Below are positions 18,888 through 34,977 of a stretch of 64,000 nt of DNA, piece by piece. Position numbers and translations under genes: made by a program. The stretch's first letter is position 1, and each line of letters begins with the position of its first letter. The stretch is taken from the NCBI RefSeq assembly GCF_046105845.1, contig NZ_CP151004.1; one strand, written 5' to 3'. The notes below the pieces were generated by a model, which was not told the origin of the DNA, did not search any database, and saw nothing but the letters and a program-made list of their open reading frames with translations. This DNA is from Escherichia coli. GTDB taxonomy: Bacteria; Pseudomonadota; Gammaproteobacteria; Enterobacterales; Enterobacteriaceae.

Positions 18888-20183
18888 GTGCAATCACTTA
18901 CTACGGCGCTGGAAAATCTACTGCGCCATTTGTCGCAAGAGATTCCGGCGACACCCGGCATTCGGGTTATCGATATTCCTTTCCCTCTCAAAGACGCTTT
19001 TGATGCCTTGAGCTGGCTGGCCAGTCAGCAAACGTACCCGCAATTCTACTGGCAACAACGTAATGGTGATGAAGAAGCTGCCGTCCTGGGCGCGATTACC
19101 CGTTTTACGTCGTTGGACCAGGCACAACGTTTTCTTCGCCAGCACCCGGAACACGCCGACTTACGCATTTGGGGGCTGAATGCGTTTGACCCGTCGCAGG
19201 GTAATTTACTTTTACCACGCCTCGAATGGCGACGCTGTGGCGGTAAAGCCACGCTTCGGCTGACGCTATTCAGCGAAAGCTCCCTTCAGCATGATGCGAT
19301 TAAGGCAAAAGAATTTATCGCCACACTGGTGAGTATTAAACCCTTGCCTGGGTTACATTTAACCACCACCCGAGAACAACACTGGCCGGACAAAACGGGC
19401 TGGACGCAATTAATCGAACTGGCAACGAAAACCATCGCCGAAGGTGAGCTCGACAAAGTGGTGCTTGCTCGGGCAACTGACCTGCATTTCGCAAGTCCGG
19501 TCAATACGGCAGCGATGATGGCTGCCAGTCGTCGGCTCAATCTGAACTGCTATCATTTTTACATGGCCTTTGATGGCGAAAATGCTTTTCTTGGCTCTTC
19601 ACCGGAACGGTTATGGCGGCGGCGTGACAAAGCGCTGCGTACTGAAGCGCTGGCGGGAACGGTAGCAAATCATCCTGATGATAAGCAGGCGCAGCGGTTG
19701 GGTGAGTGGCTGATGGCGGATGATAAAAACCAGCGCGAGAACATGTTGGTGGTGGAAGATATCTGCCAACGATTGCAGGCCGATACCCAGACGCTGGATG
19801 TTTTACCGCCGCAGGTACTGCGTCTGCGTAAAGTGCAGCATCTTCGCCGCTGTATCTGGACTGCACTCAACAAAGCGGATGATGTGATCTGTTTACATCA
19901 GTTGCAGCCAACGGCAGCAGTTGCTGGCTTACCGCGCGATCTGGCGCGACAGTTTATCGCCCGTCACGAACCGTTCACCCGAGAATGGTACGCCGGTTCT
20001 GCGGGCTATCTCTCTTTACAACAAAGCGAATTCTGCGTTTCCCTGCGCTCAGCAAAAATTAGCGGCAATGTCGTGCGACTATATGCTGGCGCGGGCATTG
20101 TCCGTGGTTCCGACCCCGAGCAAGAGTGGCAGGAAATCGACAACAAAGCGGCAGGGCTGCGTACTTTATTACAAATGGAATAG
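18888..20183 (+). CDS. menF: Isochorismate synthase (menaquinone-specific)
   Basis: 431 aa; chorismate-binding fold; GTG start codon at 18888; first gene of men cluster. Confidence 0.95.
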
Positions 20184-20271
20184 TAATGAGTCGCATCATT
20201 ACCGATTCATATCAATAATCTATTTTTGTAGCTCCTTATACTTAGCCGCAATATTGATACCGGACAAACTC

Positions 20272-21942
20272 ATGTCAGTAAGCGCATTTAACCGACGCTG
20301 GGCGGCGGTCATTCTGGAAGCATTAACGCGTCACGGCGTCAGACACATCTGTATCGCCCCTGGCTCGCGTTCTACACCGTTAACGTTAGCGGCGGCGGAG
20401 AATTCCGCATTCATTCACCACACCCATTTCGATGAGCGTGGACTGGGGCATCTGGCGCTGGGGCTGGCGAAAGTCAGCAAGCAGCCGGTGGCTGTGATTG
20501 TGACCTCCGGCACGGCGGTAGCAAATCTCTATCCGGCACTGATTGAAGCCGGGTTAACCGGAGAAAAACTGATCCTGTTAACCGCCGATCGCCCGCCGGA
20601 GCTAATTGACTGCGGCGCGAATCAGGCGATTCGTCAGCCGGGAATGTTCGCCTCTCACCCCACGCACAGTATTTCACTGCCGCGCCCGACCCAGGATATC
20701 CCCGCACGTTGGCTGGTTTCTACCATCGACCATGCTCTCGGTACGCTTCATGCTGGTGGAGTCCATATCAACTGCCCGTTTGCCGAACCGCTGTATGGCG
20801 AGATGGACGACACCGGGCTTAGCTGGCAACAGCGGCTGGGCGACTGGTGGCAGGACGACAAACCGTGGCTGTGCGAAGCGCATCGTCTGGAAAGTGAAAA
20901 ACAGCGCGACTGGTTCTTCTGGCGGCAAAAGCGCGGCGTGGTGGTTGCCGGGCGCATGAGTGCGGAAGAGGGCAAAAAAGTTGCACTGTGGGCGCAAACT
21001 CTTGGCTGGCCGCTGATTGGCGACGTGCTGTCGCAAACCGGACAGCCGCTGCCGTGTGCCGATCTCTGGTTAGGCAATGCCAAAGCGACCAGCGAACTGC
21101 AACAGGCGCAAATTGTGGTGCAACTGGGAAGCAGCCTGACGGGCAAACGGCTCCTGCAATGGCAGGCAAGCTGTGAACCCGAAGAGTACTGGATTGTTGA
21201 TGACATTGAAGGGCGACTTGATCCGGCACACCATCGCGGACGTCGCTTAATTGCCAATATTGCCGACTGGCTGGAGCAACATCCGGCAGAAAAACGCCAG
21301 CCCTGGTGCGTTGAAATCCCGCGCCTGGCTGAACAGGCAATGCAGGCGGTTATTGCCCGTCGCGATGCGTTTGGCGAAGCGCAACTGGCGCATCGCATCA
21401 GCGACTATCTGCCTGAACAGGGGCAATTGTTTGTCGGTAACAGCCTGGTGGTACGTCTGATTGATGCGCTTTCGCAACTTCCGGCAGGTTACCCGGTGTA
21501 CAGCAACCGTGGTGCCAGCGGTATCGACGGGCTGCTCTCAACTGCCGCTGGCGTTCAGCGGGCCAGTGGCAAACCGACGCTGGCGATTGTGGGCGATCTC
21601 TCAGCACTTTACGATCTCAACGCGCTGGCGTTATTACGTCAGGTTTCCGCGCCGCTGGTATTAATTGTGGTGAACAACAACGGCGGGCAAATTTTCTCGC
21701 TGTTGCCAACGCCGAAAAACGAGCGCGAGCGTTTCTATCTGATGCCGCAAAACGTCCATTTTGAGCACGCCGCCGCGATGTTCGAGCTGAAATATCATCG
21801 TCCGCAAAACTGGCAGGAACTTGAAACGGCACTTGTCGACGCCTGGCGCACGCCGACCACCACGGTAATTGAAATGGTGGTTAACGACACCGATGGTGCG
21901 CAAACCCTCCAGCAACTGCTGGCGCAGGTAAGCCATTTATGA
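20272..21942 (+). CDS. menD: SEPHCHC synthase (ThDP-dependent)
   Basis: 556 aa from [10 protein letters not shown]; ThDP motif [10 protein letters not shown]...NNNGG; ORF track extends upstream into menF. Confidence 0.95.
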
Positions 21943-22697
21943 TCCTGCACGCGCAGGCAAAACACGGCAAACCAGGTTTACCCTGGCTGGTGTTTTTGCA
22001 CGGTTTTTCCGGCGATTGCCGTGAATGGCAAGAAGTGGGCGAGGCGTTTGCCGACTACTCGCGGTTGTATGTTGATCTCCCAGGTCACGGTGGTTCGGCG
22101 GCAATTAGCGTCGATGGATTTGATGATGTCACCGGCTTACTGCGTAAAACTCTGGTTAGTTACAACATCCTTAACTTCTGGCTGGTGGGGTACTCGCTTG
22201 GCGGACGGGTGGCGATGATGGCGGCTTGTCAGGGGATGGCGGGGCTTTGTGGGGTTGTTGTCGAAGGCGGGCATCCTGGGTTGCAAAATGCTGAACAACG
22301 CACGGAACGTCAGCGTTCCGATCGCCAATGGGCGCAGCGTTTTCGCACAGAACCGCTAACGGCGGTATTTGCCGACTGGTATCAACAGCCTGTTTTTGCC
22401 TCGCTCAATGACGATCAACGCCGGGAGCTGGTGGCGCTGCGCAGCAACAATAATGGCGCAACCCTTGCCGCGATGCTGGAGGCGACTTCTCTCGCCGTTC
22501 AGCCTGATTTACGTGCTAACCTTAGCGCCCGCACATTTGCGTTTTATTATTTATGTGGTGAACGTGACAGCAAATTCCGCGCCCTGGCGGCGGAACTGGC
22601 TGCCGAATGCCATGTCATTCCTCGCGCCGGACATAACACGCACCGGGAAAATCCCGCTGGCGTAATCGCAAGTCTGGCGCAGATCTTGCGTTTCTGA
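21939..22697 (+). CDS. menH: SHCHC synthase (alpha/beta hydrolase)
   Basis: 252 aa; GYSLGG nucleophile elbow; overlaps menD stop. Confidence 0.9.
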
Positions 22698-22711
22698 CTA
22701 AAGGACACAAT

Positions 22712-33910: not shown

Positions 33911-34513
33911 GTGTTAGCTTTTTGCCGCTCTTCGTTGAAGTCAAAAAAATATTTCATCATTTTACTGGCGCTCGCTGCAATTGCCGGACTGGGTACTCAT
34001 GCCGCCTGGAGTAGCAATGGTTTGCCACGTATCGACAATAAAACGCTGGCCAGACTGGCACAGCAGCATCCGGTTGTCGTTTTGTTTCGCCATGCTGAAC
34101 GTTGCGATCGTTCAACCAACCAATGCTTGTCAGATAAAACAGGTATTACGGTTAAAGGTACCCAGGATGCCCGTGAACTGGGCAACGCTTTTAGTGCTGA
34201 TATCCCTGATTTCGATCTTTATTCCAGTAATACCGTCCGGACCATTCAGTCGGCGACCTGGTTTTCAGCGGGTAAAAAGCTGACGGTAGATAAACGACTT
34301 CTTCAGTGCGGTAATGAGATTTATAGTGCAATTAAGGACTTACAAAGCAAAGCGCCTGATAAAAATATCGTTATTTTCACCCATAATCATTGCCTGACAT
34401 ATATTGCTAAAGATAAGCGTGATGCGACATTTAAACCTGATTATCTGGATGGTTTAGTCATGCATGTGGAAAAAGGCAAAGTTTATCTGGATGGGGAATT
34501 CGTTAACCACTAA
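33911..34513 (+). CDS. ais: Ais/PmrG-like LPS core heptose(II)-phosphate phosphatase (histidine phosphatase fold)
   Basis: 200 aa from GTG at 33911; signal peptide; RHAER catalytic-His motif; divergent from arnB. Confidence 0.8.
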
Positions 34514-34523
34514 ATTTTCAATC

Positions 34524-34545
34524 TGACAGCCAGTAATGGCTGTCA
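34524..34545. terminator. Hairpin between convergent ais and nudI
   Basis: 8-bp stem TGACAGCC/GGCTGTCA, 6-nt loop. Confidence 0.45.
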
Positions 34546-34551
34546 TCATTG

Positions 34552-34977
34552 TTACAGAAGACCTTTCAAACGTAACGTTTTTCGGGTGGCGACATTCAAA
34601 TCATAATGCACCAGATCTTCAGGTTTTACCCACGCGTAGTCCTGAAACTCTTCGTTTATTTTCACTTCTCGGTTGGCAGAAACGCAGTCAAAAATCAGGT
34701 AAATCATATAAATCTCTTCCTTGCGACCATCTGCATACGTCTTGGTGCGAATATCATCGCTGAAGGTCCACGGCGTGATTTCTGTCAAAAGCAGCTGTTC
34801 TCCCAGTTCTTCGCGAATTTCGCGGCGTAGTGCCTCTTCAATTCGTTCGCCAGGCTCCACGCCGCCACCCGAAAGCGCCCATTGACCGGGGAAAACGCCG
34901 CGATCGTCGGCCATTTTACACAGCAAATAAGCACCATCATTTTGAATCAAAGGGCATACAATAGTCCGTTGTCGCAC
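34552..34977 (-). CDS. nudI: Nudix hydrolase NudI
   Basis: 141 aa from GTG start; Nudix box [24 protein letters not shown]. Confidence 0.85.

Follow-up and report, generated by a model that had tools for sequence, protein, structure and literature searches.

Translation initiation at GUG codons in Escherichia coli follows the canonical Shine–Dalgarno (SD)-dependent route, in which an NTG triplet stands 5–9 nt after an SD sequence complementary to the 3′ end of the 16S rRNA. GUG is the commonest non-AUG start codon in E. coli, and AUG is several-fold more efficient than the non-AUG starts, which give a lower level of translation. In E. coli K-12 MG1655 (NC_000913.3), menF (b2265), ais (b2252), and nudI (b2251) are all annotated from GTG, and their coding sequences (CDSs) of 1,296, 603, and 426 nt encode proteins of 431, 200, and 141 residues. 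Salmonella enterica carries pmrG (ais), nudI, and menF in the same synteny, and its pmrG and menF genes also start at GTG. Here, the starts of the three genes are analyzed in a 64,000-nt stretch of the E. coli contig NZ_CP151004.1 (the window), a chromosome segment with the order elaB–menFDHBCE–pmrD–arn operon–ais–nudI–yfaZ. An earlier note, written from the letters of this DNA, had proposed GTG starts for menF at position 18,888, for ais at 33,911, and for nudI at 34,977 on the minus strand. These starts are borne out by annotation, SD pairing, comparison with relatives, codon periodicity, and family profiles, and the three GTGs (the first two on the plus strand) are almost certainly the true initiation codons of menF, ais, and nudI.

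The locus closely resembles both described systems. The gene order (menF–menD–menH–menB–menC–menE, pmrD, arnFETDACB, ais, and nudI), the CDS lengths, and the GTG starts are the same as in K-12 MG1655, the proteins are 98.4–99% identical, and the three GTGs match exactly the CDS starts annotated by PGAP in the closest RefSeq genomes and in K-12. The reference annotation already has the three starts, and their mechanism is ordinary; no difference from canonical SD-dependent GUG initiation is seen, and there is no sign at these starts of a leaderless, initiation factor 3 (IF3)-type autoregulatory (AUU), or re-initiation mechanism. The strain of the window is not K-12, and its best complete-genome match reaches 99.4–99.6%. 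Megablast searches with positions 33,600–35,300 (annotated beneath the matches as arnB, ais, nudI, and yfaZ) and 18,400–19,400 (elaA, elaB, and menF) match approximately 5,420 of 5,426 complete E. coli genomes at 95–99.6% identity. The window differs from K-12 in having TCG instead of TAG after an ATG upstream of ais, and in the presence of a GTG that precedes the nudI start by 32 codons; because of these two differences, a mechanical listing of open reading frames (ORFs) gives longer ais and nudI frames that do not exist in K-12. Salmonella differs from the window in that its nudI starts with ATG at the homologous codon, and in that its PmrG has 201 residues.

To compare candidate starts, the 3′ end of the 16S rRNA was duplexed with the 20 nt upstream of each in-frame candidate, and the resulting energies were ranked against those of 5,996 NTG triplets in the window. 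Each of the three GTGs has the best SD pairing in its frame (tied in the case of ais) at a spacing of 4–7 nt, and candidates further upstream reach no better than −3.0 kcal/mol. The analysis of ribosome-binding-site spacing that the earlier note had suggested as a check favors the GTGs, with −8.2 (menF), −5.9 (ais), and −6.2 kcal/mol (nudI) against +1.6 and +1.8 kcal/mol for the longer ais and nudI alternatives. For the comparison with relatives, a genome scan for ArnT with 10-kb flanks provided 80 Enterobacterales loci, and Salmonella loci were added by exact-protein look-ups; synteny with menF, ais, and nudI is retained in other Escherichia species and in Citrobacter. The start position of all three genes is conserved in Escherichia, Citrobacter, and Salmonella, and upstream extensions are interrupted by in-frame stops, the nearest of which stand 2 to 6 codons ahead of the three starts in relatives. 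Codon-periodic conservation with third-position wobble also begins at the start codons, clearly in menF and nudI (most sharply in nudI) and more weakly in ais, where it is less pronounced than in the other two genes because the Ais signal peptide diverges.

The menF CDS, which encodes a 431-residue isochorismate synthase, spans 18,888–20,183 on the plus strand and starts with the GTG at 18,888–18,890. The sequence around the start reads TAA CAG GGA GAG GTC CGC GTG CAA TCA, and the N-terminus predicted from this GTG is Met-QSLTTALENLLR. Because the in-frame TAA (18,870–18,872) stands six codons upstream of the GTG, which is the first possible menF start after it, no longer menF ORF exists, and the statement in the earlier note that longer ATG-initiated alternatives run into upstream genes or promoters has nothing to refer to at this gene. 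The SD sequence GGGAGAGG (18,875–18,882) lies about 5–8 nt before the GTG, its duplex with the anti-SD sequence ranks in the top 1.6% of the NTG triplets, and it is identical in all Escherichia and Citrobacter loci compared; the GTG, the same SD, and the TAA at −6 codons are found in 15 of 15 non-coli Escherichia and Citrobacter loci. Salmonella menF likewise has its GTG after a GGGAGGG SD sequence, with the same upstream TATAAT and hairpin. The NCBIfam profile NF011588 scores 935.7 bits against MenF (cut-off 488), with residues 1–431 aligned to profile positions 1–431, and E. coli MenF has been crystallized as a 431-residue protein, the chains in PDB entries 2EUA, 3BZM, and 3BZN spanning residues 1–431.

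The 60 nt before the menF GTG are 88–100% conserved from Escherichia to Citrobacter and show no codon periodicity, which begins at the GTG itself; this pattern suggests that the stretch is regulatory sequence. A perfect TATAAT hexamer (18,855–18,860, plus strand), located 27 nt before the GTG and directly after a conserved hairpin (approximately 18,824–18,853), is a candidate −10 element and thus a putative element of the menF promoter, and a consensus scan upstream of menF called no −35/−10 pair. Within the elaB–menF intergenic region (18,810–18,887), the hairpin (GGGGTACTGC...GCAGTACCCC) comes directly after the elaB stop codon and has no T-run behind it, the TATAAT and the SD sequence come immediately after the hairpin, and the stretch is largely conserved in Salmonella as well. 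Judged by this arrangement, the intergenic stretch may combine an elaB 3′ structure with an overlapping menF promoter.

The ais CDS, encoding the 200-residue lipopolysaccharide core heptose(II)-phosphate phosphatase Ais/PmrG, spans 33,911–34,513 on the plus strand, with the GTG at 33,911–33,913. Its SD sequence AGGTGGAG (GGTGGAG; 33,898–33,905) is separated from the GTG by a spacer of 4–5 nt, and its pairing energy, which is in the top 7.7% of the NTG triplets, is the joint best in the frame, tied with an internal TTG at 34,022 (codon 38). The GGTGGA/GAGG core of this SD sequence is retained in Citrobacter and Salmonella, and the GTG itself is present in all seven non-coli loci (7/7) and in Salmonella pmrG, where it follows a GAGG SD sequence and a TGA at −4 codons. 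The nearest in-frame stop stands 5 and 6 codons before the GTG in Citrobacter, against 10 codons for E. albertii, 18 for K-12, and 24 for the window.

The open frame ahead of the ais GTG raises the alternative that Ais is a 219-residue protein initiated at an in-frame ATG (33,854–33,856), with 19 extra residues ahead of the signal peptide. ATG is a more efficient start codon than GTG, which speaks for this form; the frame is open in the window and in 1,793 E. coli genomes, and the placement of two upstream elements, the hexamer TAATAT and the conserved TTTRAGGCATTTT motif, suggests that the ATG may be located on the ais mRNA. The ATG, however, has no SD sequence (+1.6 kcal/mol, approximately the 97th percentile), and in K-12, as in at least 1,277 genomes, the codon after it is TAG (TCG in those 1,793 genomes). 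Other Escherichia, Citrobacter, and Salmonella lack an equivalent ATG or have it in another frame, and their stops occur 4–21 codons before the GTG. The family profile NF011945 (390.6 bits; cut-off 142) also begins at the GTG and not at the ATG, its positions 1–201 corresponding to residues 20–219 of the longer form, and a 219-residue Ais would gain another hydrophobic stretch, and its n-region of 33 residues would be unusual for a Sec signal peptide. Initiation at ATG 33,854 is therefore highly improbable, and the GTG at 33,911 is retained as the ais start. The narrower PmrG equivalog NF052369 gives 145.4 bits for Ais, under its cut-off of 170, and a PDB sequence search for Ais found no solved relative.

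ATG 33,854 is rejected because it lacks an SD sequence and is not conserved, rather than because it runs into anything. It is also the only case in which a longer ATG-initiated alternative exists, as the earlier note had stated for the starts in general: menF has no longer form, and the longer nudI form begins at another GTG (35,073) with no in-frame ATG upstream. The conserved TTTRAGGCATTTT motif, approximately 120 nt upstream of ais, is possibly a PmrA half-site, and its position suggests that ATG 33,854 probably lies in the 5′ untranslated region (UTR) of ais rather than in the promoter.

A motif of the form TTT(G/A)AGGCATTTT, located at 33,789–33,805, is conserved before ais/pmrG in E. coli, Salmonella (locus L084), and Citrobacter (L018 and L021), and resembles the PmrA/BasR half-site (YTTAAK); a distinct CTTAAGGTTAAGTTAAT box faces arnB at approximately 33,702–33,718. 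The ais gene is missing between arnB and nudI in most loci of the C. freundii complex (L008–L011, L013–L017, L019, and L020); C. amalonaticus and a small number of other Citrobacter have it.

The N-terminal region of Ais read from the GTG is predicted to form a Sec signal peptide (33,911–34,003, plus strand), based on hydropathy, the −3/−1 rule, and an alignment of eight orthologue N-termini. The 200-residue form has a basic n-region (Arg6, Lys10, Lys12, and Lys13) and a hydrophobic core at residues 14–27, followed by candidate cleavage sites around residues 28–31, either GLG|T (after residue 28) or THA|A (after residue 31), which precede the conserved AWSSNGLP sequence. The signal-peptide pattern is retained in the eight orthologues, and Ais displays the features of a signal peptidase I substrate, namely a basic n-region, a core of 10–15 residues, small residues at −3 and −1, and a site within approximately 35 residues. 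The claim of the earlier note that the choice of start affects the Ais signal peptide holds, as the 200-residue form is canonical and the 219-residue form places a second hydrophobic stretch ahead of it. A lipoprotein reading of the N-terminus (LAFC) was also considered and rejected, as Phe at −1 is at odds with a lipobox and Citrobacter does not conserve the Cys.

The nudI CDS, encoding a 141-residue Nudix nucleoside triphosphatase, spans 34,552–34,977 on the minus strand and starts with the GTG at 34,977–34,975. Its SD sequence AAGGAA (34,985–34,990, minus strand) lies 7 nt before the GTG and ranks in the top 5.8% of the NTG triplets, and AAGGA is found at the same distance before the nudI start in all orthologous loci. 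The start codon itself varies: 10 of the non-coli loci have ATG, 5 have GTG, and Salmonella has ATG. Such a change between G and A, restricted to the first base of the codon, is the classic mark of translation initiation. Conservation rises at the same point, from 0.42–0.67 without periodicity upstream to 0.91–1.0 at codon positions 1 and 2 and 0.69–0.76 at position 3 downstream. The structures of NudI orthologues (3N77, 3OGA, and 6DT3) are of 141-residue proteins that begin MRQRTIV after their tags, and the NCBIfam profile NF012016 matches NudI with 302.3 bits (cut-off 95), its positions 1–141 corresponding to residues 33–173 of a 173-residue form.

This 173-residue form, which would start at an in-frame GTG upstream (35,071–35,073, minus strand), has in its favor that it is the longest nudI ORF in the mechanical ORF list. 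The upstream GTG, however, has no SD sequence (+1.8 kcal/mol, approximately the 97th percentile) and is absent in K-12, and the 96 nt before the nudI GTG are the poorly conserved, aperiodic stretch described above. In Citrobacter, in-frame stops as near as −2, −9, and −14 codons break the long ORF, and strain AW1.7 carries a 1-nt insertion before the start, which shifts any extension into another frame. The 141-residue orthologues, moreover, fold as complete Nudix domains. The extension would also contain a promoter-like site, TTCACA-16-TATTCT (35,011–35,038, minus strand), which was detected by the consensus scan and may be a putative nudI promoter; Escherichia and several of the Citrobacter loci share the CCGTATTCT motif at this site. 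The position of this putative promoter fits the earlier note's statement that the longer alternatives run into promoters. The probability that NudI is made as a 173-residue protein from GTG 35,073 is vanishingly small, smaller still than that of the long form of Ais, and the GTG at 34,977 stands as its start.

Several points weigh against the assignment of the three GTGs. The annotation, the NCBIfam profiles, and the expression constructs are not independent of each other as evidence, and the SD energy of ais (−5.9 kcal/mol) is just moderate. The searched papers and their supplements contain no N-terminal peptide, Ribo-RET peak, or mapped transcription start for menF, ais, or nudI; specifically, the TetRP (PMC4909307), TRAINSPOTTER (PMC13245402), and PMC11005335 supplements have no N-terminus or initiation entries for menF, ais/pmrG, or nudI/yfaO, and a literature search on ais/pmrG transcription starts provided no usable mapped start. 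In addition, INRI-seq detects in vitro a weak peak at the nudI CTG +54 (window position 34,923; 12.4 counts per million in 3 of 5 replicates; PMC9825163 Table S3), consistent with the alternative that the annotated GTGs are used together with downstream in-frame starts (CTG +54/Leu19 or the ATG of Met22 in nudI, and the TTG of codon 15 in menF) to give shorter proteoforms.

The same table shows no in vivo Ribo-RET signal at CTG +54 and, among its non-annotated sites, no alternative site for menF or ais, and the method also gives weak non-annotated in vitro sites in arnC (TTG +108 and ATC +126) that have no in vivo Ribo-RET support (PMC9825163, Table S3). SD pairing before the internal nudI and menF candidates is weak (−3.3 kcal/mol or weaker), and residues 1–21 of NudI and 1–14 of MenF, which are conserved in protein sequence while their codons wobble at the third position, lie within the solved structures. 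As these residues belong to the conserved structure, truncated NudI or MenF would lose part of it. Additional short proteoforms are accordingly improbable, although less so than either long form, and the annotated GTGs remain the preferred starts.

The start codons were also compared within the species by counting alleles with exact 31-mers centered on the variable base (megablast, 28-nt word) in 5,426 complete genomes, giving lower bounds. The menF start is GTG in at least 5,357 genomes and ATG in one, and the ais start is GTG in at least 5,389 genomes and ATG in none. The nudI start is GTG in at least 210 genomes with the flank of the window and in at least 1,443 with the flank of K-12, and at least 1,254 genomes have ATG. 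Strain APEC17 and an O157:H7 strain carry a third type of flank around the GTG, which falls outside these counts. The ATG upstream of ais at 33,854 is followed by TCG, leaving the ORF open, in at least 1,793 genomes, and by TAG, closing it as in K-12, in at least 1,277. Within E. coli, the GTG/ATG difference at the nudI start codon (34,975–34,977, minus strand; loci L087–L090) is a common polymorphism, and the codon also varies between genera.

The menF and ais GTGs are essentially fixed in E. coli and are kept in Citrobacter and Salmonella, and the fixed menF GTG is accompanied by the highly conserved 60-nt leader and the putative promoter. The three GTGs may thus not be evolutionarily equivalent; as a tentative and rather doubtful reading, the pattern would fit selection that keeps initiation at menF and ais low and, for the level of NudI, selection that is relaxed or varies.

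The number of non-ATG starts in this interval is unremarkable. When the K-12 sequence is read at the annotated coordinates, 3 of the 17 genes in the interval (menF, ais, and nudI, all GTG) have non-ATG starts and the remaining 14 have ATG. Approximately 88% of annotated E. coli starts are ATG (PMC9825163), and at a non-ATG rate of 12–14% the chance of three or more among 17 genes is P = 0.34–0.42. Three GTG starts among 17 genes is about the usual E. coli rate, with no excess over chance.

Two neighboring genes show start differences of their own. The longest ORF of yfaZ (35,181–35,798) begins at a TTG at 35,181 (205 residues), and PGAP and K-12 annotate an ATG at 35,256 (180 residues); Salmonella yfaZ gene calls differ, at 180, 188, and 215 residues. 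At the arnB start (33,601–33,623, minus strand), K-12 RefSeq annotates 385 residues from the ATG at 33,621, and PGAP annotates 379 residues from the ATG at 33,603. The downstream ATG is the one conserved across the 80 Enterobacterales loci. It is preceded by a TAAGGA SD sequence, and in most genera the TAA within this sequence is a stop in the arnB frame; in the C. freundii group, a frameshift takes the upstream ATG out of that frame. In this comparison of sequences, the 379-residue form is better supported, and the K-12 RefSeq start is probably six codons too long. The ArnT scan covered one genome per species, and its results include neither E. coli nor Salmonella enterica, both of which have close ArnT homologues; the top match, at 92%, was to Escherichia sp. 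E1V33 and E. whittamii. The absence of the two species is probably a property of the collection or of the scan and not of the biology.

In E. coli, menF, ais, and nudI would thus be ordinary SD-led genes at which ribosomes are expected to initiate in vivo at the three GTGs, each read as formylmethionine by the initiator tRNA. The predicted products are MenF, a cytoplasmic isochorismate synthase of 431 residues; Ais/PmrG, a protein of 200 residues with an N-terminal Sec signal peptide; and NudI, a Nudix hydrolase of 141 residues. As judged from the general property of non-AUG starts, GTG would hold initiation at the three genes below the level of ATG. Beyond annotation hygiene, the result has little significance; a reader given the sequence alone recovered the three annotated non-ATG starts of the interval, and the polymorphism of the nudI start and the arnB start may help annotators. 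The longer mechanical ORFs of ais and nudI are accidents of the strain and not alternative proteins, and the correct start is of practical weight for ais, the 200-residue form of which bears a normal predicted export signal.

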